Below are positions 644 through 57,334 of a DNA stretch of 64,000 bases, one piece after another; position 1 is the stretch's first letter; every line of letters starts with the position of its first letter. Source of the stretch: Tubiluchus corallicola (lineage: Eukaryota > Animalia > Priapulida); contig JAQGDQ010000192.1 of assembly GCA_030141605.1 (NCBI GenBank), positions 248,001 to 312,000 of the forward strand, given 5' to 3'. Made by a program: the position numbers and the translations under genes. The notes below the pieces were generated by a model that was given only the letters and a program-made list of their open reading frames with translations, was not told the origin of the DNA and ran no database searches.

Positions 644-19273
<18,630 letters not shown>

Positions 19274-35449: not shown

Positions 35450-38400
35450 AATATATAGAGAGGAAACCTGTCTTATCGCATCATTAACGATGTAATTGTT
35501 TAATGAATAGGCCTGGTATAAAGTCCAAGGCAAGTCCATTCTTTGGGAAAAACCTGACGGCCGTGAAAGCTGACAGAGCGGGTTTTTCCCCACGTTAAGA
35601 GGCAAAGCTATCTCTTAACTTTACATGTACTAACTGTAATTAAAGGGAAGCTGGTTTTTCCCCACGTATGGGAGCCGGTTTTCTCATGTAATAAAGACAC
35701 CAAGTGTGTCGAGGGTAAAAAACTATGATGATACATTGAATTGTTAATTTCGTGACGTTGACAAACACTATTCTGTTTTATTTACAGGTCATGTCTCGAA
35801 GTTATTATGTTGTTATGTTATGTCGTTAATTATGAAGTGATAATGTAAATAAGTACATCATGATGTTTTAACTCATTTGTTTATTGCTTTCATTTACATT
35901 AATAATATACTTTTCGAGCACAAATTTTAGATAAAACATTTAGTTTGATACATCGACCCTCTTAACTTTTCTGAGCTAAGCACGAAATAAGCGAGATTTA
36001 TGAACCAAAATAAATTCCCCGTTCACGACATGATACCAGATTTTACTCTTGTTCTCGAAAAATGACGTGTTTGCTTGACGAATGGAAATCGATGGCATAA
36101 AATTTAGCACATAAAATGTGTACCAAAAAGACAGAGAATAAGTAATTTAAAATACTGATATTATAATTCTTATTTGTAATATGGAGTGGAAAACAGAATC
36201 AGATATTATTAGCTCACTGCGAAATCAGGCATGGGCGTAATGGACGGTATGCACTTTAAAAATTTTCTTAAAAGCTTTTTCGTATTCACATTATATTGCG
36301 AGGAAACGTATTAATATACATATTTGAAGAGCAGGCTGCGAATCATAATTATATCGTTTAGTGCTACCTGCCGCCCAACGCCTCATATTTTATCACATAG
36401 ATTAAACAATTCCACTAAAAAGCGAAAAAAATCAGGAAGGTCTTAAACCAGGTCAAATTTCAGCGTACGTTGTAGATTACAAATCTCGATGAATTATTTA
36501 TGAAGTCTTATGTTAGACTCTGTCCTATGATAATGTCCAATTTTTACTATGGATAGATATCGAAAAAAAGCTATCAAGATAAAAAATGATTTCAATTTAA
36601 AATAACTAAACTTCGCGGTAATGCTCATATTGCTGTTTGTTTCAGTTTTCCTCCTCTAATTCAACTGTTCTCAGAATGGTCTGTCTGCAGTTCAACATGT
36701 GACTACTGAGATCAAAACAGGCGAGTCATTCCTTTAATACCTATCTACCTATTTAACTAAAATTCAATTTCCAGTTGTTTAATTGAAATCGCTCTCTTGT
36801 GACGCCACGGAAAAGTGGAAGTACCTGAGTTGGTATTTGGTCCTGTTCCAAGGCTTCTAAGACTACAGCATGACTCTAATTAGTAATGCTCATGTTGAAA
36901 TGCTGAGCCATTTGGACTGGTCATCTATTAAAAAATGAACGAAAGTTTCCTGTCAAATATTATTTTATGTGGACAGCTTTGCTCGGGATATCGACGAAGG
37001 AAAGATCAGAAACTACATTACTCAAGGCTGAACAATGGTACAGACAGATCAGTGAATTATGGAACCGTATAGTTCCCGCGATACACTGCTTTGAGTACAA
37101 AGGCATGGAGGCTTGATGATCAGGCAACACCAAGGCAAGCGTTCACAATGTAAAAGAAGATAGAACACAGCGTTATGTCGTGGAAAATTGACGATATATG
37201 TTTATGTTACTCTATTATGTGACTCTATTGCGAGCAATTGACAATCTATTTAAGTCGTTCAGCTACAATAGAAACTAAAAAAGTGGTCTGTCATAAAGTT
37301 TATGTCAAGAGGTTAGGTTAGAAAGTATCAGTTAATTTTTTTAGTTACTGTAACTAAAGAGAAAAATTGCTTAAAGCGAAAATTAGGTTTCTGCCCTAAT
37401 GCGATGGTCATGCGGCGAAAAGTGTTTTCAGTCACAACTCTTGAACGCTGATTTTCAAAGAAATTAAAAAAATGTTTCGCAAAGAAACGAGGTAAAACGG
37501 ACAAAATGTAGATATAGCTAAGAAAGTCACACGTTATTAAGAGTGCTTCTATTGTATCTATTGACAACATATTTTATCTATGACTTTATATAACAGTGCA
37601 TTTGCTGTTAGATTAACGCGACAAATTTAAATGAATTGGACATATAGTTTTATTTTTTCTCTCTAATGGTTTCTAATGCATTTATAGCATCTAAATGCAA
37701 AGTGCGTGAGTTGTTAACAAACATGCCAACAAGCATGTGTATTAGCTGAGACTTGAAAATTTTGAAGTCTTTAAAAAGGACGTGAGATCTTCTAATATTT
37801 ATCCATAATTTCATAAACGATTTCGTTGGTTTGCATCCAGCTTAAAATGGTTAGATACCTAATTGTAGATTACCTTTTCCGAATGTGTCTGCCACTTCAT
37901 ATTTCTTCAGATGTAGGTTGTAACAAAATTCATTGCTCGACCGTTGATAGCCAATGTTAGCTCTGAGTATTTTATTTCACTATTTCGTTTATTGGGTTGC
38001 AGTGACGCATTCGAGAACTGGCGAATAATTGCAATCTGTTATCTTTTCAAAACGCGTTTACTTTTTAATATCGAATACCTAAGTTAATATTAATAGATCA
38101 TTAAAATTAGATATACCACAATCATTGTCGTTTCTGAGCTAGCGGTAACATGTGATATGATCATAGATATTCTTGTAAGATGTAACGTTTGTTTACAGCT
38201 GTGTTTGAGTAAATAAAAAACTTGGATAGGGAATTCAGACACTCACATTCTATGAAAAGCTAAAGGTGTTGCGGAAAAGTGGTATTTTGGCTTATCTGTG
38301 TTTTGCATTTATTACCGATATAAGCTTTAATTAGCTTTTAATGTTTGCTAATATTTTACAAATAATTGCCTGATAAAGCCAGTTTTCATTGAATTTGATT

Positions 38401-38718
38401 CAATGTTTTCCTTTTAATGGCTCTTCTTAATTTGTGCTAATAATTTACAAGAACTGACTAACGCCAGCTTTGGGCGTTGGTTTGATAAATGCACGCAAAA
38501 ATGTCCTACTATTACGATAGTATTATGGTAATTTAAAGCTAATCGTTTGCTGCGTCGGCGAACGAATCTATCAGATCTGGTAATAAGCCAGGCTTACAAA
38601 ACTGCGCTGCATTGCGTTCGTATTAATGCGCACTCAATCTCGCTACCTGAGCTGTTGGGAATAACGTTTGATAGAGCTCCAAATCTAAAAACTGCAAGTA
38701 CAAGGTGAAACTTACACG

Positions 38719-38803
38719 ATGAAACCGACTGAGATAGCTCAGTGCATTTTTTGTTTGTTGTGTGTTTTTTGTTTAATAACTGGGACATCTTCACAAGAAC
38801 ATG
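38719..38803 (+). CDS. Signal-peptide exon of the peptide-precursor gene (MKPTEIAQCIFCLLCVFCLITGTSSQEH)
   Basis: ATG, hydrophobic core, T-S-S/Q cleavage-like site, G|GTAAGA phase-1 donor matching the acceptor at 46113. Confidence 0.72.
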
Positions 38804-41800
38804 GTAAGATATTTTTCAAAATTGATTAGTATAGTTTTTATGGGAACAGATACGAATTAATAAACAAACTACAGTAAGCTTAAATTGTTACTTTCATGTC
38901 TCTGTTGTTGTTATTAAAGCCTGAAGAAGTTATCATAGGCAGACAACCCCGGAATTTATTTATGATTTTTACTTGTTATCGTTTTGAAAAACCATTGTGC
39001 TAAGAAGTCATGACAAAATCTGTACTTTTAGCAATAAACAATCCAGGTGTAGTGTATCAACTCTATTTAAAATATAATATGATAAAATTACGATAAAAAT
39101 AAACTAATTTTGCATTCTTTGTAATTGTATTTCATCTAGAAATAGATTTGTATGTACCCAGGAGAGGACATAAGTATGTGTTAAACTGTAGTGTTTCTTC
39201 ACAAATGCATTGGTTTTCGAGAAACTTATCAGTTTATAAACAACTCGATTTCTTACCCAGTTTACAAATTAACGTTGTTAATTTCGTGTTTCCAGTTGAA
39301 AAAGTTCATTAGAAATATGCCTAGATGTTTAACATAAGACTTTTTGCCGATCTTATCATTATCATTCATAATTAGCCCAAAACTGGATTTTTATTTTCAT
39401 TTAAGAAGAACAGAGTCATGTTTTTAGATATTCAACGAAATTTTATTCACTGCCAGCCACACGTTTACATTCATTAATCCCTCGTTCATTATTTTTCCTA
39501 GATTATTAAGGTCTCTAGGAAAATATTGGCATCGTCAGCAAACAAATGAAACATTAATTTATTTGAACAAAGATCATTTATGTACGGCAATAATAACAGG
39601 GGACTCCAGGACCTGTATCGACATTTTAGCTGAATAAAAAATGTCGTCAATAAAGTCGAAAGAGATAAACAGTCGAGATAATAAAGTTGACCACAAGTGA
39701 CAAATACGAGAAGAATTTAAAACAAAGTTCGCAACATTGCGGACAAATTGTCAATTCTAGAGATTCTTGTATCGTGAAAGTATAATATACAATTACAATT
39801 AATTTGCCTTGCAAAGGTCATACTTTAGACTCAGTATTTACCAAGCCGGCAGTGAACACGTCGTGTAGCTGTAAAAATATAAGCAGATAGACGGATGGAT
39901 AGATGGATGAACGGAACAACCGACCCACCAACTAGCGGGCAGAGAGCCAGACAGATAGACAAAAAGATAGCTAGAAAGACTAACTTACTGAATGAACAAA
40001 GGAACAAATAAATGAACGAATGAATGAATGAACGAGCAAATAAACGAACGAATAAATGAATGAATGAGTGAATAAATGAGAAAGAGGTAGGCAGGCAGAC
40101 TGCCAGACAAACAAATATTTTAGATTTTTATCAATACAGAACTTGCAAAATAGAACAGCAAAAAAGTTATTTATTACTACCATTTACAAAAGCCATCATG
40201 TAAACGTAGTAATTTTTAGCAGAAAATTATGATTTTTTATGGCACTTTTAGGTTTATTATACGCTTTTGTCGCTGTTGTTACTCGTTAACCACGGCATTT
40301 TGTCTTATTCGATTACTTAAATTACTTTAATTTAATGCAGTGCCCTTGAAATTTTTTGCCAAAGTTTAAACCTGTGATTCGTCGTTACTTTCGTTTTGCA
40401 TGTATTTACAAGTAAACGGTGTAGAGGAACAGTTTCTTGAAGCCTGAGGAGCCGACGTGTCTACTTATATAGCTAATATGCAGATGTCAGCTGCATGTGT
40501 TATATGGTATCGTATAAATCCTACAATGTGTGGTTTTAATTCTAAAAGTAATTAACTTGCTAACCCTTGAATTAGAGCTTACTGATTATACAGTCATGTG
40601 GCAGGCTAAATCATTGATTTCTCATGAACTAGCACTTTTTTATTTATTATTTATATTTATTCGTACACAATTTAATCTATTATTATTACAGTGCGCATGG
40701 TTTTTAAGTATTAGATCTTATAATCACTTAATCAGGCTTAATCACCAGGCACATGTAATAACACGGATAGGTCTGAGAGTATCTCGTTTTGAAGCATCAA
40801 ACTAGCAATGGTCTTCTTAAAGTATAGATTGTGACTTATTGCTTATACGATATGTTTGTATAACATGTGGTTTCTATAACCATCAGTAATTTCTTTGAAG
40901 TTAATTGACCAACGACGCTCCTCTTGTATGAAACTCTTGCTCAGTAATTTAAGTTTTTTGGTCCAATTTTGAAAGTTTTCGCTATTGTTTTCTGCTATCT
41001 TGCTGACTCTAGAGCAGGTGTAAAGTCAGCCTGAAAAGAGCATGAAATTGTGTAAACTAAAATTACTGCGCTCTGAAACCAAGGTGATACCACTGAAATT
41101 CTCATGAATCATAAAATCGGGAGCGAAATTGCAATTGGTTTTCTGTTATAATTATTAATAATTTTTAAGAAAATCATTGAAACTAATGAGGGACTTTTGA
41201 AATACCCTATGTTTTTTAACTTTAAATTTATTGATACACCACTTTATTGGTGCTAAAAATTTTGTAGTAAGTAATTGTGCATGTGTTTTATTAGTTGTTA
41301 ACAATATGTTTATCTGAAATATACTACTTTTTACCTACTAACAATCATGGACCATCATGGACCAGTAACTTTCAAAGCTATTCATAGTGTATCTATGTAG
41401 AATACAAATTCTTATTGTTATTCTTGTGCAGATTCAATTTTTGCATCATTAAGTATGGCGATTTTGTTTATATTAATTGGATTAGCATGTTCCCAATTGC
41501 ATTTTTCTTTTTTTGACATATGCTGCTCGTAATAACGCATTATCCTTACAAATAGAAAATTTTTCTATGAATCAAAACACTAAAAAAGCAGCGCAAAAGT
41601 TGCAAATGAGAACCTTAGTTTTTGAGAAACAATGTGTCAAAAGTCTATTAGAACTTAAAGTTTTTACGAAATTAGCCTACCTTTCTTTATTATCGAGTGC
41701 TGACTGAAAGCCATCAGGAGATCATTTATTTTTAAATAAAACAGCATACGTGTCCTGAATTTATGGTTTTTCCAGCTCAAACTACTATTATAATGTACAT

Positions 41801-44800
41801 TTCACCATAAAACCGAAAGCAGCTAATGTTCAGGCTCTATAAATAAAATTACGGTTCATTATTTTTCCAAGACTTATGCATAAAAACTTTATTAACGCTA
41901 TCTCATTAACTATTCTACACTTGTGACGTGCAGAATTTTAAAAAGCAAAATACTAGATGCGAGAAATAGAGAAAAATAATACTGCAGTGAAAAAGATCCA
42001 AAACTTTAATTTTAAGTTAGAAGCCAGAGTAAGATAGTGACGGTAAGTGTCAGTTATGCAGGTCACACTGTACAGATTTGGCATAATAACCTGTAATAAA
42101 ATTTAGTAACTGTAATATCCTCTCTGAATGACAAAAAATAAACAAATTTTAACCATTCTTTCATATAGGAACAAAAAATACTCACCAGCACTATGCCCTG
42201 CATTTTAATTATCAAAAGGATTTTGACATTTTGCGTTTGACATTATACATTTTTGTAAGGGCATCGAACACCTACAATTACAAATACTGTTCCGAATGCA
42301 AAATGTGGAGAAACTCGTATTAAAGATAATACAAGTAATATCTGGAAAGTAACACAGTGACATTTGGAACTACGAACAGTGCATAAAGCAAAACTAGAAT
42401 GTGCAACAAAACAAATTCAGCTTTAAAAACTTTTTTAAAATTTAAATCAGATTTTAATTTTATATATTCTAACTTATCTGATTTCAATACTAAGGTATTC
42501 TGAATAAAAATTGACCAATGGATTTCACATTTTTTTCAAAGCCAAACAATAGCTTTCATGTGCCGTTTTAGCTTCTTTAGTAAGCTCATGATTCTTGCCT
42601 ACATATTTATAATACTCCTTGAACACATCATTGAGAACCTTACTTACTTCTTTTATGATAACTTCACTTAATGGCGTAGGTATTTCTTGAGCTATTTCCG
42701 CATGCCTGACGAGAAAGGCAAAGTGATAATCGTCTTTGGCAAACGATTTTAAAGAGCCTTTCGCTTTTAGGTCTTTCGCTCTCAGTTCCATTAGCAACTG
42801 AGCAGCAGCAGCATTCATATAACTTGACTCCCGTTCCAATGACAGATCACTTAGATCTGGCACTCCATTTTCGCTAAATGTGAACTGCGTAATCGTATCT
42901 TCACCATACGTATCAAGCTTTTTTGTAGGCTCCTCAATTGGAGTTATACTCTTGAGCTTTTGACGTTTAAAAGCTTTGGCATGACTGTCATCTACCAGGG
43001 TGTCACTGATCATTGTCTGCGACGTCCCTGTGCCTTTTCTGACCACTGCAGCTGCTTGCAGATCTTTTAGGGTATAAACACGTGGTGAGCCGGGTGGTTC
43101 CTTGCCCAATGGTCTCTCCGTTTCACTGATGGTGCCTTGCCTCGTACTTATATCCTGTTTTCCTACTTGCACAGCATCAATAGGCATTTGAGTATACCGC
43201 CCATTTCTATTAATTTCTGGCAACAATTGAGCTGCTGCAGTTTTTTCTCCCGCTTTCGTGTTTACCAAGGTTATTTTTGGTACTTTTGCCACATCTCGCT
43301 GTTTCGGCTCTATTTCATCAGATTTACTTCGCGGCATTTTATATTTAGTTTTCAACAACTTTTCACCACTACCACTGTCTGCGTCCTGTCGTTTCTTGTT
43401 GAAAATGCTTTGCAGGCTCGAGGCTTATATAAAGTTTCGAATAAGACTGTGAGAAATTACTGATATTAATCCAATCTGTAAGCTGAAAATCCTCGGGATT
43501 GTTCCATTGAATAATGTGCGAAATGTTAGCCACCAAAGAAGATGTTAATTTATTACAGCGCTTATATGGCGTGTATTGATACTAAACAAGTCTTATTTAA
43601 AATAATATTTTATACCAACTGACCGTCTGAGTCTTTTATTGGAACACGTGGATTAAGTATTCGGCACCTGCAAACATTGTTAAACAATACCAAAAGATGG
43701 AATGGCTCAACAATAAATTCTAGTTTGACAACAATCACCAACGTCGGGTATTGTAGTAAAATACTGAACGATAAGTTCAGTAGTAGTAGTAAGTCTGGTA
43801 CAGGTAAATTTGCTCCTGATAATTTCTGGTACACAGAAATTTTAGCACTGGGAAAATTGGGCATAGGAACAAGTGGATCCGGTACAAGGTAAAAATAGTG
43901 CGAAAGGCGTTTCGTGCTAGGAAAGTTTAGTGCTGGAAAAGTTTGGTACTAGGAAAGTTTAGTGCTGTTAAAGTCTGGCACTATGAAAATTTGATACAAA
44001 GAAAATTTGGTGCAAGAAAAGTTTGGTACTACGAAAATATCTTTTATATAACCCACTGGTAAAAGTTAAAGAAGTTCATTGCTGTATTTGTTTCTATTTG
44101 TTTTTTTTTGTTCATGTCCTTGTTTGTTTGTTGTTTGCTATTTCATTCAACGTCATTGTTGTTGTTGTTTGTCTGTTTCTTGCTCGCTTCATGGTTGTGA
44201 TCATCATCGTCGTCGTCATCATCATCTTAATGATTAGTCACCTTTGTTACTTTTGTCAATATGTTGCTGTTGCTGTTGCCATTGGGCATTACCATTATTG
44301 TTGTTGTTGTCTTTTTGCTGTTATTATTGTTGTCGCTGTTATTGTCGATGTCGTCGATGTTGTTGTTACTATTGTTGTTGTTGCTGATTATGATGTTGTA
44401 GTTTGTTTATTTGTTTGTTTGTTTCTTGCATGCTGTTTTTGTATCATCTTCAGCATCATCATCGTCATCATTGCAGTCGTCATGTTACATTTGTTTTTTC
44501 ATTGCTGTTGCTTTTGAAAATTATTTTGAAATGAGACTTAGAAATGTTCCTTCCTGTTTTGTACCAAATTTTTCAGTCCCAAACTTTCCTAGTACGAAAT
44601 TTTTCCACTACCATTTTTTTCTTAGTGCCAAAATTTCCATACACTTTCTTAATACTAAACATTTCTAGTACAATATTTTCTTTCTACCAAATATTCCCTA
44701 TAATAGATTTTCCTAGTACCGAAAATTCCTTGGACCTAAAAATCATAGTACCAAATTTACCTGTGCTCCTAGAATTAGTATACTGCTAATTTTAACAAAC

Positions 44801-47800
44801 TTTATAGGCCAGTATTAAACAATATACACTATATTTACAAGATAGTTTTATAAGTATGATATGTTTACAATAATGATGTTTACACAGGTGCACGGTAAGT
44901 TTGGCACAAGTAGGTTTGGTACAGGTAAGTTTGGTACTGGTAATTTTGGTACTAGGCTCATGTTATTACATTTGTTTCTGTTTTTTTTCACATCCTCTGT
45001 TGTTTGTTATTTGTCATTGTTGTTGTTTGTTTTTTCTTGTTTGCTCTTTTGTTGTGATTACTAAGACCACCACCACCACCTTCATCATCATCATCATTAT
45101 TACTGTTATTGCTACATTTGTCATTTTTGTTGCTGTTGCTGTCGTTATTGTTGTTGCTGCTGTTAACATTGTCAGCAGTGAACATCATAATTATCATTAC
45201 CATCACCATCACCACTGTTACTGTTGTTGTTGTGCCTATAAATAACGATGGATGATTACAGTAATATTGATGATGATGATAATAATGACGATAGTGATGA
45301 TGGTAATATTAATGACGATGATAACAGTGATGATTATGCCAAAAATGACCATTATGATGATGTTGACAGTGACAATAATTAAGACAATTGTAGCAAAAGT
45401 AAGAATGACAGCGATTGCTACTGCATACAGTAGTTACTGCTGGCACTACAATAAATTTTAAAATAATGTATCTGCGATGTTAAAAATTAGTGCGTTTTAG
45501 AAGGCTTATAAAGGTGGCTGTCATGGTAAGTTTGGTACTACTGGAAGGGGTCACGTACTAGAAAAGTTTGGGAAATACTGGCATAGCGTAGTAGTGCGCT
45601 ATGTGAATGCATGGATGGGATAATCACGGATAAAATTTTGTCTGCCACACACTATTAATTACAATATGATGTTTATGAACTTTTTAATAAACTAGACTTT
45701 CCTAGTACCAGATTTCCTCCCTACTGTATAAACTTTCTGTAGTTGAAACAATTATTTTATACTGAGATATAGAAATGATTTCTTTCACATTTATTACCAA
45801 ATTTTTCACTACCACACTTTTCTAGTACCAAGTTTTCCTCATATCAAACATTTCCCGTGCCACATTTTCCCAATACCAAAAATTCCTTGTACCTTAAACT
45901 GATAATACCAAATTTACCTGTACCAAAACTACGACATACCAAAAATTCCTAGTACCAAGTTTACCCGGTACGAAAATTTCTTCGTACCAAAATTACTTGT
46001 ACTAAACTTATCTGTACCAAATTTACTTGTACCAAATTTTCCTACATCAGCTTACACAACATCGCAAACTAACTGATGTCTAATAGAAAGTAATATGTTT
46101 TGCAATTTTCAGAAATGGACGAAAGTTCAGAAACAGAATTATTACGGAAATTAGAGTCCTTGTTGAGGCTCAAGAGACTTTCCTTTTTATATGACAAAAA
46201 TCAAGATGATTATCATACAGATACCGAAAAACGTGGCGTAAGTATAAGTTTGTTGCCGTTAGACAGAGATTATTTTGCCATTAATCTGGTAGGTAAAGGA
46301 ATAAAACATGACGTTACTTGTATTCCTCTGAATACAAGTGAGAAACAGTGAACACTTAGAAATTTTGAACCCTAAGCTTAATGGTAAAATTTCACCTGTA
46401 GCATTGTGTGTGAATCAATTGAATACAAATGGCAACAACACATTTTGTAATAGTAAAAGGTATGGTGTGGTGTATTGTGGTGAGATATAATGTAGTGTTA
46501 TGTATTGTGGTATGGTATAATGTGGTGTGATGTATTGTGGTAAGGAATTATGTGGTATGCTGTATTGTGGTAAGGTATAATGTGGTGTGATATAGTGTGA
46601 TTTTGTGTGATGATGGTGGGATGTGGTGCCGTGATGTGCCAAGGAATGGTGTGGTATGGGTGTGCGATTCTGCGTATGCAGTGCATTGTTTGTATCATGT
46701 TGCATCATGCCGCATCAGATTGTATTACCTTGCATTTTTCTGTGTGTTTTTTACCTTGCCAGATAACATTTCGTAATTCACTTTATGTAAAATTAAATCC
46801 ATGATTTTTTACCTTCTATGTACTAAGTTATTTATACTAACTGCACATGTCGTTTCAGAATCAGAATAGTTTTATTTGCCTTCCAAATAATTATGAATAC
46901 GGTACACATGCGTCCGTAATTTGTACAAACAATCGTATTGATCACTTTAAGGTCTTAATTCGTAAATGTGTTTATTGCCTAAAAATAGAATTTTAAATAG
47001 CAGTAACATGATTTTATCTAGCATAACTGATACAGATATTCGATATAACTCATTGTACTTCCAATATTGGAACTCATTGCTAACCTCTTCATTTATTATT
47101 TAACTAACCTCTGCCCCTCTTGTACAGATTTACCTTATGTATACAGTTTTATAATCTGCACACTTATTTGTTCTTATATAGCACTTTGTGTATTGATTTA
47201 AATCTAAAACAAATAAATAAATAATCACTGGATTGTACATAATAATAATTTACAAAAGTTAAAGAAGGGAGCTATAGCAAAAACCAAATGGTCATCTTAT
47301 CTGCCATCCCTGACTAGTGAACCTACTAATAGATGGTAAGTAGGCCTAGACATTATTATAGCAAAAATAACGAATACAACAAAAAAAATTAATTAAAATT
47401 AAATTTTGGTAAGCAATTCTAGAAAATACAAATTACGCAAATTTATGCACAAAGTCAAAAAGAAAATTAATAAAGCAGGATTTAATATACATGTAATAAA
47501 GCAAAGCATACATGTAGTTACTAAATATACAGAGAATAGCAAGCAAAATTAATCATATTATGCAACAGAGAATATGTTGAATATGAAATATGAAAGTGAC
47601 AATGAACTGTCATATAGAAACAATACTTCTTTGGGCATGTAATGCTAGATTTTCTAAATTATTTATTATTTTTTATCATTTTTTGCAATCACGCACAAAT
47701 TAGAACTTTGGAAGCAAGGTAAGTTTTACCTTTCGTGTGTGTGTGTGAACGCCTGTGATTTAGATTTAGATATAGTTTATTTCCGTAATAATACATCCAA

Positions 47801-50800
47801 ACATCATAAATTAGTACAATACTGTACTAAGTTGTTAAATGTGGAAAAAGGATGGTGAATAGCCGAAAGAGGTCATCAAGTCAACCATCCTTACTCAGCA
47901 GAGATATTAAGACTACAATTGACGCGTGCTTATTATGAATTCAAATGAAATAAAACGAAGCAGTTTAATTACAAATAATCAAATCAAGCTGTAAAGTAAT
48001 TCATGCTTTTCAAGCAGTCAGGAAGAACGGTAAAAGCAAAAATATTATATTCAACTTACTCAAGCAATTAAACAAAGTACCAAGGAACTCTTTTACAAGT
48101 ACTAGGGTAATCAGTAACAAATCACTGTAAGACCCTTGCATACTGTGTGCACAAATCGTCCTTGATAGGCCCTTTGGCTTTTCAAGGAAAAAAGGAAGTC
48201 CTGTTTTGTTTCTGAAAGAGCTGAAAAAGAACAGGAAAGTCATCTCAAGTTTGCACTTTTAACTGCCTAATGAAATAGTTTTCTGGTTTTAATTGTTTCA
48301 ATTCGATCATTTTTAAGTTTAAGTTTACATTTTTTCATGTGCAATGCTTTCATGAGCTAATAATTAGCGTGATATGAAATAACATGACAACATTATACGA
48401 CATGACATTTAAAATGACATTACGTGACATGGTATAACGTGACGTAACATGACATGACGTAGCGTGACGTGACATGATATAACATGACAAGATATGACGC
48501 GACACTGCATGACGTGAAGTGACATGACATGACAGCTGTACAGCTATATATCATAGCTATAAAATTTCTTTGTTAATTTTTTGTCTGTCTGTTTTCTTTT
48601 TATGCTTGGCATTCCTATACAACTTCAAACAGATGGTAAGTTACCTATTTTATTAGAACTTACTAAAATTATCAAACCTGTCTTCTGTTTAATGAAACAC
48701 ATGCCTACATAGTCTGGAAGGGACCAAAATGATTATTGCTTTGCGGTGAATTTATCGACTTTTTTAAATATTAAGTTAACATCATATAAGAAGCCTCGGT
48801 TGCGCCATCTCTTACACTTTTTAACACATCTACTGGTTGTTCAACGTTATTAAAATCTAAATGTGAATATATTCCCTACATCTCGTCATTCTCTATTATT
48901 TCATCATCTTTCTCACCACATTTCACACTCATTACCTTTCAGGCTTTCCTGCCCTTTATCTTGCACCTTGGGATAAATAAACTATGAAACAACGTAGAAA
49001 AGACTTAAGGCTGTCGATTATAGCCAGGGATTACACTGAGATTCAGATAAATTTAGCATATTTCATATAACGGAATTAAAATCACTAGTTTAAAAGTACA
49101 TTAGCAATATAGGTTTGAGATTATCACTCATAGCATTTTATGAAGAATAGAAGGTAAATAACTACGTTATTTTATTTCCATGGTTTTGTTGAACATGGGG
49201 CACGCACACTAGTTAAATCTTATGAGTTTTATTATTATCATTTATCGGTGATAATTCTATCTTTCTGATGAGCTCAAAGTTTTCACGCCATAAATAATTA
49301 GGCTGAAGTCCGCACTTATAATTGTTGCGCACTGTAAATTATTTGCCCAGCTGCAATAATAACGACAGAAACTTTGATGCCGTAGAATTTAATCTTTTTG
49401 CATGAATGTGATGAAAATCTTTACAAAACTGTAGAGCGTCTTCAGTCTGTAAATAAATGACTTAATTAGATTTTACTTTTCTGAAAGGCAAAACCTAAAT
49501 ATTTAATGCACAAGAATATTCTTTACTTACATAAAGCTAAAAAAATTCGTCTTGAAATATTATATCACCTACGTATACTGCCTTGTTGATCACAGAGCTT
49601 GTAGCAACAACGCTGTATAAAACTTGAAAATTTAAACTCCCGCGACGACCGTTAGACGCAGTACCTTTAACAGTAGGTAGATTGAAACGTTTGTTTGAAA
49701 AAGTAATTAGAGCATTCGTAGTGCACACTTCACTAACTAAACAAAAGTATAAATTACTGTATCTTGTCAAAATACGTTTTTGGTGAGTCAGTGGTGCACG
49801 CTGGGAAGGTGAGCCAGTGACATTTTATCGGTTGGCGCGGACCTTTTAAATAACAAAGAATTCTCTTGTCTGGTTACGTAAGTCTTTCAAACAGGTGTAA
49901 ACGTAATGCAAAATAATGTAATTTTGTGTGGAAAATTTTTTAGGACATATTTTGAAATCGCCTTTCTTCCCCTTTAAGAAACACCTTTAAGAAATGAAAT
50001 ATAATACAATTTTTCACTAGCAATTAAACGATGAAGGGATTAATGGTGGTAAATTGAACTGTAAAATCAGATATGAATTTATGGCACCTACTTTAATTAA
50101 GATCAATTAAAAAATTCTTTTATTGCTTGGCTGCAGATGTGTCTCGTAAGTATGCGCTTGTTTTGTCCATAAATTTCTATGTATTACGTAGAATTATCCA
50201 TCAGTTATGAATGTAGTAGAGAATTTATTTGTTCATACCGCAACATTAAAAGAATTAGTACTGCCCGTTTGTTGTTTGCGTGACATTAAGTTTATATGCA
50301 ATATACTCCCTTGGAATAGCATACCATTATAGTGTAGCTAATGTATAGTGTAGTAGCAGGGATAAAGGTGTGCTGGTGTCCTAAACATACCCAGATTTTG
50401 TGCTGAAATATTCCATGTGAATAAATTTCTGGGCCAGCAGTACACCACAATTTGATGTGTAGTTGTGCATAGCCAATAAGTTTAAGCCTTCATTTTTTGA
50501 TAGCGTTAGATCCGCCAAATACTTTATCCGTCCCTGCTATGATGCTATGTAATGATATGAAAAACATCACAGCCTGCTTAGTTTGCTTATGTGTTAATCC
50601 GACCCTGTGTAACGTAGGGTCGGATTATTAACGTAATGTACTTGTTATTTATTTACCTTAATGTAACGACCATTGTTATCTTCAATGCATGATATTTTAG
50701 ATTAAGGCATTGCGTTTGTTTTTTTAAAAAAAAATTAGTTTTGATCACACATGAATGATATGATAATATTAAAAGTTCGGCTTTCCTAGTTATAGTGCAT

Positions 50801-53800
50801 TATGTCATTGCAATATAACAAACTGTGATGTTATTTAAACGTTTTAAGGCGTTGTAAACAATTTTTTCTGATTTATATCTAGAACCTGTTAACCATCACA
50901 GGGTCGAAAGCATTCACACATTTTGCAACCCACCTAAATATTTTCAGCTACCCTTTCCATACATAGAAAGGCCTAAATAAATTAAATGAAAGAAAACAAC
51001 ACGCGCCTGTCCTGCGATTTTTCTTCCGAGTGGGCGCTAAATATTATTATTGTAAGTCTTTATTCAACATCTATTTGCAGACATTTATTTATAATTGACA
51101 ACATATTAATTTCATTGCAAAATAAAAAAACGTATTATCCAAGTTAGTTCATACGACAAATTACATTGTAAAACATCTGACAATTTCATTTTTAAAATTA
51201 TATAACCAAGTTCCACTGCTTTACTAATTTAGATTAAATTTAAATATTTAATATATATTAAATATATATATACATACCCCACTGGACCTGTATAATCTAC
51301 TGACACCTCTACAAAATTTTCATACTTGAATCAATTTTTTATAATCTTGATTTTCTGTTAATGTGGTGTAAGGTATAAAATCGTCTTTGATAAGATTGAT
51401 AATAGTTATTAATAAACTTAAAATATTTTCACTCCGTGTTAAGTATACATATTATAATCATTATTTAAAGCATTAATTAATAAATTCAGTTGCACATTCA
51501 AATAACAAGTGCTCAGGCACTTATGAGGTGTGCCACTACATGAACAAGTTGGATTTAATGGCCGACCATTATAATTAAAAAATAATTAAAATTGTCATGG
51601 CCTAATAGAAAACTGAACCCAATGACTTCAACAGCCTGTTTTACCAGCAGGGAATATCGGGGACCGACCAAATTTTTGTTGGCAATGTAGACGATGGGTT
51701 TCACTGAAATTTGTTTCTGCCTCGCTTTAATCATTGTTGTTCTACAAACAGATTCGATTTTTGTCAATTGTTGTTCAGAAACCTGTCATTTTTACAATAG
51801 TCAAACATTTCACACGGCACTTCGTTAATATGTAGGTTTCTGATTCTAATGTCTTTCGTGCTTTTTAAGTTTTGTGTAGTAGCAGCTACGCGTTGTCTCA
51901 CGAAGTACTTCTTGACAAAGTCATATGCTTCTTTATTGATAATGACAGTCTTACTAAATCATTTTCTTCACAAATGAGGATTTTAGAAACAAATTTTACT
52001 GTAATAGCTGAAATTCTAGGTCCAAAGAAGCAAATCCGCAAATTAATATGCTCTAGTTTTTCTCTAGGTGGGTGGAAATGTACACCAGCTGCTATTTTCT
52101 TAATACTGTATACTATATCATCGAAAATGCACAAGTGCCAGTCATCCAACAACATAACATAATAATATGGGAGAAATATCAATGCTTTACACAAAGCAAT
52201 TACAACAGTCAAATTTAGCCCCTTACTGTCAAAACAAAGGCAAACTGTCAAAGTAGTAAAGTGTAAACTGTGCTGTTAAGTATTTATATGCTCGTAACTT
52301 CGTAAGATAACCAATTCTTTGTCTACAGTGCAGAAATACGACTTGGTTAAAGGTGTATAAAATTTGTAAAGTCGTAAAAAATTACAGTTCTTAATTTAAT
52401 TGCATATCATTAGTTTCTTAGTCCTTTGTTTTTAGTTCTTTAATTTCGCAGTCCTTACAATATTTTTTATAAGTTATATGGTATTTGATCGTGCTACAAT
52501 TTGCATAATTTACATGACATTTTAATGTCGGCTTGCAAACATTTTGATATTTTCCAAAATAACTGAGCTAATTGTAATAATTGTTACGTAAAATTGAGCG
52601 TTTTTTAATCGAGATGTAAGCCTAATTTTGAAAAGTTCAGTACCAACAAATAATTTTATAAGTTTCATTTGACAATGTCAGAAATTATTTTTGTCCATGC
52701 AGATGATTATGTAAGAATACGCAGCTGTACAGCCAAACATCATGTAATGTAAGTTGCACAAAGTAAATGTGATTATTTATTTTTTATTGCGCAGTTGGAC
52801 TCTCGGGTAAGTATAATTTTTATTATTAAAGATAGCTGCCCACAATATGGACACAATAATAGGCCTGCATATTTTTAAGGAAATTATCATTTTTCCTGTG
52901 ACAATATATTCTGTAAAAAAGGTTGCATGTCCTGCTTTATAACACTATGCTTAGCTTCTTGGAGGATTTTATGTTTATTCCTGTATATCTCAAGTGAACA
53001 ATGATCGCCTGTCTAGGATTGGATGCACCTAACAAGAATGCCATTTCAGTCGCACAGATTACAGAATTAATAATTAAATTCAGAAGGAGGAAGGCTTTGA
53101 AAAATTGTGAGTCAACCAGAATCCAGCCAGATCTCTGTGACATCAGGCCTCACGCTCCATTCATTTAAGCTGTCAACCTACATGTCTGAGTTCTCATACT
53201 AGTCAGCATGCATGCAATCAGTCAGAGCCACCTATTCATAGTAAAAAGAAACTAATTAATCAATAAGCTACCATAGGTTTCTAGAAACAAGTATAGAAAT
53301 GGGCCTATTCTAACTGACTAACAGGCTCAACAAATTTGTTAATTAATATATTTATCTTTTCTTTGTCTGCTGCTCTCTTCAGAATTGTGGTGGTTTGGGG
53401 GTAAGTATCACTTATGAACATATATGTTATACCTATATATGCGCCGCTAAGAAACTCCAGATTAAAACTGCGTACTACAATTCTTATCTGGTGCTCATAA
53501 TCCAACAGATTTTAGATTTCTGCAGTTATCATTCACCGACGAATTAATCATGTAATAATAACAACGAGAACGAGCGTGACGGCAATGACGAACGCGACAG
53601 CAATAATTCTAAGAAAATATCTGTAATGCATTATCTCTACGGTTTCGGTAAAAAAACTGGAAAAAAACAACGGAACAATGGTAAAAAGCTTTCCTGAATA
53701 TTGTTATAATTAAAAGCTTTCACTAACCTAGTAACATTGGAAAATAATGTTTTGTCTCAAAAAATCGTTCCTTCAAAAACTACTCAAAAATATCTACGTT

Positions 53801-56642
53801 TAAATAAGACTAGAAATTCAACTAAAGATGAATTTAAATATTTGTTAACAATGTTTCTCACGTGGCCAGAAAATGAAGATTTTGAAAACAACAGTTACAA
53901 AATTGGGTCTTGATCAGACGTCAGTCTTTTCTTTGAAAATTATAATTTTGATTTTTTGAATTCGCGTTGTATGATTATATAATAACTGCACTTCACTATG
54001 AAATAGCAACTTTTTGACTCGTGATCTGTCGGCCAAAGGTCAGTCAACCAATCTCCTGCCAACTTATACCATTTCTGTGTGCTTATTTTGGCCGACGAAA
54101 GGAAAGTATTTGCCTCCTCCACCCCTATTTTGCCCATAGTGGGCTCAGGGATCAACAAATCTTGGAGTAACGAATGCCATTCAGTTAGTCTCATTGAGAC
54201 TTTTCTATTTGATATACTACAAACAATATTCGTCAAGAGTGAAAAAACATCTGTGCCTACTCTTCCAGCTTCAGTTTTTTACTTTCGTTAATTTTTTTAC
54301 TTTCAAAATAGCCCATATTCAGCCACGTATAAGACACATGACCTCGTCTAGGCACATAGCAAAAATTGTTTCTGTAGCTCAGAAACTGTAGGAGAAGATA
54401 AAGCCTAATAAAAAAAAACTTAAATATATATATAAACCCTAGGTACCTGACATGAGTTTTCCAGCTTATTTACTTTTCCAGTTATTGACAAAACCCTGTT
54501 TTAACACTTTTGCCCATGTCACGTGACTTAGCCACGTCCACTTTCAAATAAATTATTAGTGTCCATCTACCCTTGCTATAGAACTCCAGTACTGCAACAA
54601 GAGCTGAGTGACAAAGTAATTTGTCCTATGTTTCATATTTTGGTTTCTGTCACTGTGACTTTTGACCCAGAAGTCACCTTTCCTATATCATCTTCTGAGC
54701 ACCTGTCTCATGTGCCTACCCTGCAAGTTTCGTGAAGATTTCGCTCTAGGCGGTACATACATGACCCCGTTTTCTGTTTTTCGCTCCTATCTCAGGCCCT
54801 TATATGGAACCGTAGCTTTTTAAAACCCCACGTGCACACCTACCCACAGTACCTAAATACTAGTGGGAAAATATTTGAAAGAAAAACTGAAAGTCCTAGG
54901 AGGAGATGCGAACTAATGCCAGTTGCCCTATTTTTTACATTTTGGATCCTTAAGGAGTTCCAACTTTTTTAAACGGCAGGTGTACATCTGCTCATATCAC
55001 CTAAATACTTGTAGAAAAATAAAAAGACAGAATGCTGTAGGAGTTGCGACCCATTTGAAAAATTAGCCAATGCCCACTGCACTTACCCCCTTCGCCCGCT
55101 CCAAGTTTCGTAACCCAAATTTGCAAGTCTAATGAGTTATTAAGCGGAAGGCAAGCGGAGAATAAAGAAATAAATAATAACTGTGTCATCGAATGTACGA
55201 GATTCAAGAAGATTTTGCTGTTGCATTATCTTGATGACTAGGGCATTTTGTCCAGTATGTAGTGTCAAGAGCATGAACTGATGATGATGTTTTTTCAGAG
55301 GACGTTTTCTGTGATTAATATCAATAATCACTGTATAGTCGGCCCGAAATTTGCCATCATTTTTGTTTCTGATGACAGTCTTGTTAATACAACTGAAATG
55401 AGCTCTACGTTTGATTTGTATTAAATAATTTGACATATAATTGTCGTAATTCCCTGAATCTGTTTTGGAGCGGAATAGATTAACTTAAAACTGGAATGCA
55501 TTTGTATCTCACGCACAAGAGAATTTACGAGAACGCTAAAATAGACCGACATATTTCTATCAGATGAGTAGATGCTTCCCTCGAGGGTTTCTACGGAGAT
55601 TTTTTTTGTACCTTTTAATGTGTTGCACAAAGAAATACATGAGAAATTGTATGACCAGCGCAAAAAGTTTGCGTATTGCAAATTTAGAGCTGAAATGCTA
55701 AAATTGAATTCTTTGGCTTCACAAAATTAACAATATTTTGCAGATGTTTTTGGAAACCTTCCAATTAACGTTTCATTTGGCTACTAAAGTTAAATATAAG
55801 TTTGTTTAAAGAAAAACAAATTGTTTAAAGCGTTATTGCGTAATACTGGGTTGAGACTAGTGCTGTTTAAATTGTTTATTATTAGAGCCAACGAATGTTT
55901 TCTGCTTTTTTAGAAACGAGTTCCTGGCTTATTTGCACAGTATCTAACACGAAAAGTTTACAAACCGTCTGATTTAGAACAGGTATGTACCAGCATTACT
56001 TTGAATTTTCCTTAATATGATAATAATAAAAGTTTATTTAAAACATGCAGTTATTGTAGTTGTTACAGCAACTATACAGTATACTGTATACTGCAACTAT
56101 ACTGTATACAGCAACTATATAGTTGCAATACTCCCTGAATTACTACATAACATTTTTAATAAAAATTTAAAATAGTATACATGTACTTAGACGATAACGA
56201 AATTAATGATGTAAATTACTTGTCTTTCTATTGAATGACCTTCGATGGAGAACTTCCGTAACATTATAACATATTACAGGAAAATCACCAAAAAACTCTG
56301 ATTTTAAAAGTAACGCATTCAGAATAAATGCAACGTATGTTACACATCTTTGTAGAAAAATGGCCTCCAACTTTATAGGTTTTCGAGGCCTTGTTATTAT
56401 CTAAACTTGTTTCGAACCTCACTCGTGATGATTACTTTTTTGTGCTCTTGCGTGCACCCGAAATCAATTGAACATGTCAACCCCCAAACAGCTAACATAA
56501 ACTACCTCCCTGATTACAAAAAAACATACAGAAAGACTGTTGGCGAACTGGCCGCCATTGAGTGTTCAGGTTGTGCTCCTATCACGACTGCCCAAACTTT
56601 ATTGTCCAAACTATAACAATCTTTTTGTATTTTTTTCAGTAA
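38719..56642 (+). CDS. Predicted ~112-aa secreted peptide/neuropeptide-precursor-like protein: join(38719..38803,46113..46237,46763..46772,47704..47718,48633..48635,50137..50145,52703..52710,52795..52806,55914..55982,56640..56642)
   Basis: The joined exons translate to MKPTEIAQCIFCLLCVFCLITGTSSQEHEMDESSETELLRKLESLLRLKRLSFLYDKNQDDYHTDTEKRGITFQLWKQDDVSHDYLDSRKRVPGLFAQYLTRKVYKPSDLEQ*. It has a signal peptide, three KR sites and acidic spacers. Every junction is YAG/GTA. Confidence 0.68.
42525..43337 (-). CDS. Uncharacterised intronless ~270-aa protein (MPRSKSDE...YCLALKKM) nested antisense in intron 1 of the peptide-precursor gene
   Basis: An 813-nt non-repetitive ORF in AT-rich DNA, with raised GC and natural amino-acid composition. 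First ATG at 43337. No family recognised. Confidence 0.75.
   Translation of the reverse strand: MPRSKSDEIEPKQRDVAKVPKITLVNTKAGEKTAAAQLLPEINRNGRYTQMPIDAVQVGKQDISTRQGTISETERPLGKEPPGSPRVYTLKDLQAAAVVRKGTGTSQTMISDTLVDDSHAKAFKRQKLKSITPIEEPTKKLDTYGEDTITQFTFSENGVPDLSDLSLERESSYMNAAAAQLLMELRAKDLKAKGSLKSFAKDDYHFAFLVRHAEIAQEIPTPLSEVIIKEVSKVLNDVFKEYYKYVGKNHELTKEAKTAHESYCLALKKM
43795..44770. mobile_element. Foldback-like element A, inverted arrays of 15-bp GGAAAGTTTGGTACT/GGTAAATTTGGTACA with a low-complexity core
   Basis: Forward array 43795-44035, reverse array 44550-44770, (GTT/CAT)-rich middle. Confidence 0.68.
44885..46045. mobile_element. Foldback-like element B, same family as A
   Basis: Forward array 44885-44955, reverse array 45695-46045, low-complexity middle. 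Confidence 0.68.
46113..46237 (+). CDS. Precursor exon with two KR sites (EMDESSETELLRKLESLLRLKRLSFLYDKNQDDYHTDTEKRG)
   Basis: ttttcag acceptor and C|GTAAGT donor; inside ORF 46100..46351. Confidence 0.75.
46460..46660. repeat. Degenerate pentamer repeat (TGTGG/TGTAT)n
   Basis: Directly visible. Confidence 0.85.
46763..46772 (+). CDS. 10-nt microexon (ATAACATTTC)
   Basis: Long pyrimidine tract ending ccttgccag, GTAATT donor; supplies the phase shift needed for the KR-containing frame. Confidence 0.55.
47704..47718 (+). CDS. 15-nt microexon (AACTTTGGAAGCAAG)
   Basis: T-rich AG-free tract with TGC, TAG acceptor, AAG|GTAAGT donor. Confidence 0.62.
47755..47900 (-). mobile_element. LINE/SINE 3'-end fragment
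   Basis: The reverse complement contains ggatggttgacttgatgacct...caccatcc, similar to the LINE 3' stem-loop at 32830-32872, then AATAAA and a (TCTAAA)n tail. Confidence 0.5.
48380..48535. repeat. Degenerate pentamer repeat (CATGA/CGTGA)n
   Basis: Directly visible. Confidence 0.85.
48633..48635 (+). CDS. 3-nt microexon (ATG)
   Basis: About 75-nt AG-free pyrimidine-rich stretch, CAG acceptor, GTAAGT donor; frame-neutral. Confidence 0.5.
50137..50145 (+). CDS. 9-nt microexon (ATGTGTCTC)
   Basis: ttcttttattgcttggctgcag acceptor, GTAAGT donor. Confidence 0.62.
50345..50548. mobile_element. Small MITE-like element
   Basis: Imperfect TIRs atagtgtagtagcagggataaag / ctttatccgtccctgctatgatgctat. 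Confidence 0.45.
52703..52710 (+). CDS. 8-nt microexon (ATGATTAT)
   Basis: atttttgtccatgcag acceptor, GTAAGA donor. Confidence 0.6.
52795..52806 (+). CDS. 12-nt microexon (TTGGACTCTCGG)
   Basis: ttttttattgcgcag acceptor, G|GTAAGT donor, 84-nt upstream intron. Confidence 0.63.
52950..54270 (-). mobile_element. Possible highly degenerate Penelope-like retroelement remnant
   Basis: VGTDVFSLLTNI (~54225-54260) resembles the Penelope RT motif SFDVxSLFTNI; IRIVVRS at ~53470-53490 resembles the linker region. Weak. Confidence 0.3.
55292..55488 (+). repeat. ~195-bp dispersed repeat, copy 1 (inverted relative to 59225-59420)
   Basis: Reverse-complement match; ORFs 55140..55436 and 59276..59458 are near-identical. 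Confidence 0.9.
55914..55982 (+). CDS. 69-nt exon (KRVPGLFAQYLTRKVYKPSDLEQ)
   Basis: ttctgcttttttag acceptor, CAG|GTATGT donor, open in phase 0. Confidence 0.65.
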
Positions 56643-56790
56643 ATCTCGCAACAGAAATGTCCTGGATAAGCTAAATTAGTGCTAGCTTTGGCGTTGGATC
56701 TAGGATGGACTGATGCGTTGGATATACTGTATTACCAACATTTTTTATCGATGATTTACTCTTTGCAAATAAAGCACATGAATGCATTAA
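56640..56790 (+). other. Probable terminal exon (stop TAA at 56640-56642, 3' UTR, AATAAA at 56768-56773)
   Basis: Strong ctttttgtatttttttcag acceptor immediately followed by TAA, with a canonical poly(A) signal downstream. Confidence 0.45.
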
Positions 56791-57334
56791 AATACCGATT
56801 TTGTTATTTATAATTCACCACTACTTTTAACCACGTGCTTAAACTTTTTGCATGTAATAATTGGATACATTTTCAGCCTTTGTTTGTTCAAGCCTCAATG
56901 ATAGCAAGAAACCGACTCTTGGCCAAGAATAGCAAAACAGAGACATTTCTGCTGTTGCTCCCAATCCTTCCCATCCGAGTTGGTTTATCCTAACTATGTT
57001 TTTAAATCCTTGTCGTTTTGAAATAAACATTACCTGCAAATTCTTTAATATAACAAGACTTATAAGTCAAAAAGGCATAAAAATTTAACAGAATATGAAT
57101 ATGTTATAGTCAATGTGTGAAATCGGGTATTCTATAGAATGCGTGTGCCAAAACAAACAAGATAAACTGTCTAAGATAATTCCTTCTACTCTTTTCCTAG
57201 GCATTATAAACAATGCAAAAGTTTGTCTAGGCGAAGTGCGTAATTCTTACATTTTGAATATACTTTTCCTGGACATTTTATATAATAGCAATTTAATGTT
57301 AGGGAATGTGTGAATTTGAATTCGGTTGGCTGGT

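Follow-up and report, generated by a model that had tools for sequence, protein, structure and literature searches.

Mature neuropeptides usually lie within a single exon of their precursor gene or are interrupted by one intron. Secreted products built from very small exons are known from the schistosome microexon genes (MEGs), which consist mostly of microexons and are described as flatworm-restricted and fast-evolving (PMC4350168, PMC10526429). Neural microexons typically act as cassettes that adjust a domain already in place, and those dependent on SRRM3/4, through the eMIC domain, are marked by an upstream UGC (PMC10551640). Spiralian neuropeptides have been catalogued in 72 groups (PMC8557429), and the supplement of that catalogue includes the many-copy allatostatin A/buccalin precursors, with nemertean LD...GGL-amide and phoronid LDSRF... 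peptides; the allatostatin A motif is a C-terminal Y/F-x-F-G-L/I-amide or F-x-x-G-L/I-amide (PMC12509031). Here we describe a gene on the plus strand of a 64,000-nucleotide stretch of the priapulid Tubiluchus corallicola (GCA_030141605.1, contig JAQGDQ010000192.1, positions 248,001 to 312,000; hereafter the window), in which three successive microexons are spliced onto a larger exon. The gene probably encodes a precursor of about 108-112 residues, likely that of a neuropeptide or peptide hormone, with one amidated peptide built from frame-preserving microexons. Its prepropeptide anatomy is of a known kind; what appears to be new is a mature peptide predicted to come almost entirely from a run of microexons.

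Results

Three microexons are spliced in order onto a precursor exon

The exons and candidate exons of the gene, with lengths in nucleotides (nt), are the following; "the contig" is the spliced contig described below the list.

E1, 38719..38803 (+): start codon and predicted signal peptide, ending in phase 1 with donor GTAAGA; from the sequence.
E2, 46113..46237 (+): 125 nt, ending in phase 0; an acidic pro-region and then an acidic spacer peptide are each followed by KR, and the mature peptide's first Gly comes last; from the sequence and the contig.
m1, 46763..46772 (+): 10-nt candidate, donor GTAATT, absent from the contig; may be a chance signal or a frame-switch exon.
mX, 47333..47335 (3 nt, Met) or 47318..47335 (18 nt) (+): candidate with a GTAAGT donor, absent from the contig; the 18-nt form carries stop codons in phase 0.
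m2, 47704..47718 (+): 15-nt microexon, NFGSK in phase 0, spliced in.
m3, 48633..48635 (+): 3-nt, one-codon microexon, Met, spliced in.
m4, 50137..50145 (+): 9-nt microexon, MCL with the first cysteine, spliced in.
m5, 52703..52710 (+): 8-nt candidate, donor GTAAGA; in the window's allele it keeps the frame only in combination with m1.
m6, 52795..52806 (+): 12-nt candidate, LDSR, donor GTAAGT, a hit under the strict rule given below; apparently skipped in the contig, probably a genuine exon judging by its signals.
m7, 53383..53400 (+): 18-nt microexon candidate, NCGGLG, with a strong acceptor and a GTAAGT donor; second cysteine and amide-donor glycine.
E10, 55914..55982 (+): 69 nt, starting with KR, after which come the 21 residues of a C-terminal peptide that contains one RK; from the genomic sequence.
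E11, 56640..57040 (+; end approximate): stop codon and 3' untranslated region, AATAAA at 56768 and 57022; from the genomic sequence.

Two public sequencing runs, X1 and X2, were aligned to positions 38300-51200. For 55900-57050 no RNA run was listed, which speaks neither for nor against a transcript there. X1 is DNA and crosses introns at 99-100% identity; since the window may itself derive from X1, this run was not treated as independent. The single run X2 was typed as RNA by the tool's guess only, but one of its contigs joins exons without their introns and therefore demonstrates splicing whatever the label of the run. This contig (X2 record 12; 185 nt, depth 59.4) spans 46112-46237, that is, E2 from end to end, where it mismatches the window at 6 of 126 letters (around 95% identity). 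The two of these six differences that are listed are both synonymous third positions. Beyond 46237 the contig runs on for 39 letters that are not intron, of which 30 are displayed: they agree with m2 at 15/15, m3 at 3/3 and m4 at 8/9 positions and then continue for three more letters. Thus, 26 of the 27 letters right after 46237 match the three microexons, with introns of 1466, 914 and 1501 nt missing, and the longest contiguous match of this loose end in the window is the 15 letters of m2. The one deviating letter, the last base of m4, is synonymous if the exon is 9 nt long.

The 30 loose letters were scored ungapped against 384 possible exon orders. The best order was m2-m3-m4-m7 (2/30 mismatches), followed by m2-m3-m4-E10 (3/30), while placing m5 or m6 after m4 gave 4/30 and intron read-through 21/30. 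Three successive microexons of 15, 3 and 9 nt are thus spliced in order onto E2, in phase 0, and m1 and mX are skipped in this contig. At its other end the contig holds 20 letters 5' of E2 that depart from the intron sequence. In the bin 38731-39161 the mean X2 depth is 2.48, the value that 18 letters of depth 59.4 give when averaged over 431, and the 17.4 in the E2 bin likewise corresponds to 126 letters; judging by these depths, the 5' end of the contig probably sits on the end of E1, i.e. E1 and E2 are joined.

An earlier note, made from the letters alone, had proposed a hidden gene here: a signal-peptide exon at 38719-38803, exons at 46113-46237 and 55914-55982, a stop exon from 56640 and, between them, six tiny segments of 10, 15, 3, 9, 8 and 12 nt. 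All of these lie where it placed them, the segments with AG/GT ends, and joining them as proposed does give an open frame of 112 residues when recomputed, which is weak evidence because 64 of the 128 subsets of the seven candidates end at the same stop. The specific 112-residue product, with its acidic central peptide, did not hold, as its exon order mismatches the contig at 23/30 letters and the contig reads m2-m4 in phase 0 rather than phase 1; the mutual compensation of the 10- and 8-nt segments is not used in a contig that omits the former. A direct join of 46237 to 55914, which the note had named as an outcome that would speak against its gene, disagrees with the contig (22/30 mismatches). 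What stands is a hidden, spliced gene with prepropeptide anatomy and a microexon-encoded central peptide; the frame has been corrected, and the amidation site and the cysteine pair, both overlooked in the note, enter through a predicted further exon, m7.

The junction after m4

The four letters beginning at the last base of m4 admit two readings. In reading (a) m5 and m6 are skipped and the contig departs from the window by a synonymous substitution in m4 and by another, at the start of m7, that exchanges Asn and Asp. In reading (b) X2 has one base more than the window at the m4/m5 junction, which keeps m5 and m6, both included, in frame. We place (a) somewhat ahead of (b), since it fits the 5% divergence and requires no defect in the window; both run into m7. 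The X1 DNA record 7 also ceases to align after 50144, with 26 letters left over, and this break at the point where X2 diverges indicates a difference at that spot without telling its kind. Scanning the window sequence between m4 and E10 revealed no microexon beginning with the observed letters. In the intron downstream of m4 there is a short, perfect, hairpin-like inverted repeat at 50590-50630.

Microexon-like signals cluster between E2 and E10

Microexon-like signals were counted under a strict rule (YAG, 1-20 nt and GTAAGT, preceded by a pyrimidine tract), the rule and the region 46238-55913 both having been picked after the candidates had been seen. The region holds six strict signals against one in the remaining 118,324 strand-bases (expected 0.08), and none of 1000 dinucleotide shuffles reached six (mean 0.43, maximum 4). 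With the relaxed donor GTAAG there were seven signals against 0.74 expected, and m7 had the highest pyrimidine fraction (0.85) of the plus-strand GTAAG candidates; with GTAA the excess in the region was not significant (9 against 5.07, P=0.07). The cluster is above chance. Its strict members are four of the six segments of the earlier note, together with m7 and mX, which that list had missed; m1 and m5, although present, fail the strict rule because of their weaker donors, GTAATT and GTAAGA. The lone strict signal outside the gene lies at 31884-31899 (-), 16 nt long with a GTAAGT donor.

An origin of the microexons by tandem duplication was unsupported: the flanks of 2/27 pairs scored at the 99th percentile for random pairs, about the number that 54 comparisons yield by chance.

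Anatomy of the predicted precursor

The path E2-m2-m3-m4-(m6)-m7-E10 uses triplet exons only, all in phase 0 and all with GTAAGT donors, and the microexons translate to NFGSK, M, MCL, (LDSR) and NCGGLG. The resulting precursor has 108 residues without m6 and 112 with it, and the microexons supply 45/324 or 57/336 of the coding bases (14-17%). In E1 the hydropathy of nine-residue segments peaks at 3.38 in a hydrophobic core and small residues occupy -1 and -3 before Gln26, from which a signal peptide is predicted by hydropathy. Dibasic KR sites occur twice in the contig-covered E2 and once at the opening of E10, and in the genomic sequence a join of m7 to E10 would yield Gly-Lys-Arg. In phase 0, m4 and m7 contribute one cysteine each, and the other four of the six cysteines in the precursor are in the signal peptide. 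E2 stops one residue past KR and E10 starts with KR, and the microexon block therefore corresponds to the peptide itself: a predicted mature peptide of 15-22 residues, amidated and probably disulfide-bridged, that would span a block of 4-6 microexons over 9.7 kb.

By analogy with established prohormone processing, the signal peptide would direct the precursor to the secretory pathway, convertases would cleave at the KR sites, and carboxypeptidase and PAM would process the Gly-Lys-Arg at the m7/E10 join so that the peptide ends in Leu-amide. A disulfide ring could form between the m4 and m7 cysteines, Cys-x2-Cys in the 15-mer that runs from m4 directly to m7, Cys-x6-Cys in the 19-mer with m6, and larger with m5. 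The peptide's target would be a receptor, probably of the G-protein-coupled type (GPCR). Neural expression, processing and alternative splicing are predictions of this model.

Loss of one microexon would alter the ring or the tail, and loss of all of them would remove the peptide with the remainder still in frame. Dropping the whole block preserves a frame of 93 residues without the peptide, so that splicing would be an on/off switch. A more elaborate scheme is unlikely, though worth stating: a splicing-programmed slot in which eight cassettes between two fixed cleavage sites give several amidated ligands of varied ring size, or none, and in which an m1+m5 frame switch re-reads m2-m4 as an entirely different, acidic peptide, that of the earlier note, making m2-m4 dual-coding and letting cell types pick the ligand. 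On isoform variety there is the one contig, lacking mX and apparently m6, with no second isoform in the aligned runs.

Homology and motif searches

The query for the homologue searches was the 41-residue E2 translation. A word search among longer proteins left 0/13 candidates at E<=10, phmmer found none at E<=0.001 among 1.84 billion representatives, a PDB search gave one chance match (E 0.7), and none of five pieces matched Pfam. These blanks, and those reported next, are weak because the queries were short and came from single exons. Matches in the ESM Atlas were limited to bacterial HerA-like fragments and were rejected on account of low recognition. Among metagenome contigs 0/596 pattern matches were confirmed; one contig (L001) with a single exact 20-mer was rejected as chance, its flanks being unrelated and its G+C content 50%. 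The earlier note likewise had recognised no known family.

Two sets of peptide motifs, of five and of six, were absent from the papers covered by literature text searches. Exact-string searches of the PMC8557429 supplement (3.85 million characters) gave no matching precursor, and the 33,728 characters covered of the PMC6188537 xenacoelomorph supplement no match. Text searches pairing a microexon with a neuropeptide precursor led to two papers, both on schistosomes; tiny-exon terms were absent from the 30 papers listed out of 190 in a broader search, and 14 papers from another showed no gene of this kind in the title or the opening of the abstract. Resemblances to glucagon, CRF and sulfakinin motifs were dropped, as they held only in the frame of the earlier note and the contig shows another.

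Other genes in the window

The window is eukaryotic DNA with 34% G+C, rich in repeats. At its left end, and extending beyond it, is an EGF-repeat gene (648-14670, -) whose N-terminal domain of about 200 residues belongs to no Pfam family and has 63 relatives, mostly unnamed. Relatives of the protein come from bivalves, annelids, a gastropod and amphioxus (49-61% identity), with an unnamed best match at 68%. In a tree of 55 rows, leaving out matches P0056-P0063 and one short alignment, it belongs neither to the starred mollusc clade nor to the starred one that contains amphioxus and a sea-urchin cluster, and has no resolved place of its own. An open frame at 11005-11331 (-), in an intron of this gene and on the same strand, encodes a basic run behind a stretch that resembles a signal peptide and is perhaps an alternative first exon or a small secreted gene.

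Antisense in introns of the EGF-repeat gene, 33 kb from the microexon gene, lies an allatostatin-A-type precursor gene (4713-4814 and 5726-5953, +): a signal-like exon (phase 0, GTAAGA) and, across a putative join, an exon for two peptides, each with Gly-Lys-Arg. The first of them agrees with the allatostatin A motif F-x-F-G-L-amide (PMC12509031), and the gene shows the initial [M/I]D that characterises spiralian members (PMC8557429). Searches gave 0/29 candidates among longer proteins and no Pfam match. Frameshifted minisatellite copies of this allatostatin-like peptide unit, with a period of about 39 nt, flank the allatostatin-type exon on both sides (5260-5730 and 6470-7110, +; 7120-7340, -, inverted). 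From these letters, a multi-copy neuropeptide exon has apparently decayed to satellite, two intact peptides remaining.

Inside intron 1 of the microexon gene a 299-codon open frame (42525-43424, -) lies in low-copy DNA (X1 record 2). It has a threshold Pfam match to Mso1_C and an Atlas lead of 0.89 to an unnamed eukaryotic cluster, and is possibly a nested gene; no upstream exons for it were found in the window sequence. A frameshifted LINE-type retroelement with endonuclease and reverse transcriptase occupies 29346-32078 (+).

Discussion

Several points weigh against the interpretation as an amidated neuropeptide or hormone precursor. The evidence for splicing is one 185-nt contig from one run of guessed RNA status, about 95% identical to the window in E2; with 30 of its 39 loose letters displayed, four letters cover what follows m4, and these match no exon order of the window exactly (best 2 mismatches). 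The placement of m7 after m4 rests on three displayed letters, one of them different, and the junctions of m5-m7, E10 and E11, hence the amidation site and the second cysteine, are predicted from genomic signals. The strict candidate mX is skipped in the contig, so a strong signal is no proof of inclusion. UGC occurs upstream of m2, m3, m4 and m7, and within -35..-3 of 8/8 candidates against a background of 43-45%, but the enrichment is not significant without the acceptor's own TGCAG (6/8, P=0.06; 4/5, P=0.10). Finally, no homologue or known motif found in our searches backs a neuropeptide family.

Three other explanations were considered. The same gene, spliced in the same way, might serve secretion outside the nervous system, by gland or skin or in mucus, as a defence, pheromone or venom-type peptide, with microexons varying the product as in schistosome MEGs. 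Exocrine peptides may also have dibasic sites and amidation, and the missing neuropeptide family match would suit them. A signal exon followed by symmetric tiny exons between long introns is moreover the MEG layout (PMC4350168, PMC10526429). Here, however, microexons account for just 45/324 to 57/336 coding bases, a minor part of the gene; MEGs have a high dN/dS (PMC4350168), whereas the E2 differences that are listed are synonymous; and the gene is single-copy within the window with no toxin-like cysteine frame; nothing pointed to the toxin that the earlier note had offered as an option. We regard a non-neural secretion as possible, though clearly less probable than a neuropeptide or hormone.

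It is quite unlikely that the gene is spliced as seen while its product is not processed to a bioactive peptide, being a structural or decaying secreted protein, or that a frameshift at the m4/m5 junction affects the window's allele. Homologues were not found, and the break of X1 record 7 after 50144, where X2 also differs, may reflect a stretch whose length is not the same in the window and in the public runs; yet the processing signals fall on exon borders, the E2 differences are synonymous and the window's own sequence contains a fully in-frame path. Least probable of all, and by a wide measure improbable, is that the main form is the product of the earlier note, which includes m1 and m5 and reads m2-m4 in phase 1, the contig being a minor form or that of a diverged population. 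Its frame is open, m1 and m5 total 18 nt, m5 is usable in the window's allele only together with m1, and the m1 acceptor is good (pyrimidine fraction 0.75) with a donor agreeing at 5 of 6 positions. Against this, the sole spliced contig (depth 59.4) omits m1 and differs from that order at 23/30 letters, signals of the m1 type are not above chance, any two non-triplet candidates have roughly a one-in-three chance of compensating each other, and in that frame the cysteine of m7 is left without a partner.

If the favoured model, an amidated neuropeptide or hormone, is true, a bioactive peptide would be encoded almost wholly by exons of 3-18 bases, with the borders of the block coinciding with the cleavage sites. 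Such genes would escape genome-based neuropeptide mining and be mistranslated by gene predictors, and invertebrate peptide catalogues may therefore omit a class. The gene would offer a compact natural test of the recognition of consecutive microexons, a one-codon exon among them, and of the idea that microexon splicing can turn a ligand on, off or between forms. These implications come from one animal, with relatives not found and a function that is predicted. The tiny-exon layout is already known from parasite secretions; for peptide hormones no description of a mature peptide spread over a run of microexons was found, most subscription papers being outside the search.

The predicted precursor resembles bilaterian precursors of one amidated peptide in its signal peptide, KR sites, acidic spacer, putative Gly-Lys-Arg signal and length of about 110 residues, and departs from the usual neuropeptide pattern in that four to six introns would split the mature peptide. 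Vasopressin and oxytocin have Cys-x4-Cys-Pro-x-Gly-amide beside the signal peptide, followed by neurophysin; here the ring size is different, Pro is absent and there is no cysteine-rich domain. CCHamide and the GGNG-excitatory peptide have a ring with a His/Trp core ending in Cys-x-Gly-(Gly/Ala)-(His/Asn)-amide, whereas the phase-0 translations contain no His or Trp and Cys stands directly before Gly-Gly. With allatostatin A/buccalin the gene would share a GGL-amide end, and the LDSR of m6 resembles the start of phoronid allatostatin A peptides (PMC8557429 supplement). Its predicted N-C-G-G-L-amide, however, has Asn rather than an aromatic residue at -5 and Cys at -4, two cysteines are present, and there is one amidated peptide instead of many copies. 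Because the aromatic residue is absent and the peptide is single, its predicted translation sets the gene outside the allatostatin A/buccalin family.

The likeness to schistosome MEGs lies in a secreted product, symmetric exons of 3-18 nt, introns of 0.6-2.6 kb and the ease with which such genes are overlooked in annotation. In contrast to MEGs, only 14-17% of the coding region is in microexons, and their block takes up a single slot between convertase sites; prohormone processing is unmentioned for MEGs in the accessible text of PMC4350168 and PMC10526429, whereas the gene here has prohormone sites. CGGL also occurs in one MEG motif (PMC10526429), a four-residue match that is no evidence of kinship. 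Like SRRM/eMIC-dependent microexons, m2, m3, m4, m6 and m7 are short (15, 3, 9, 12 and 18 nt), frame-preserving and in phase 0; unlike those cassettes, the series at this locus would build a whole peptide.

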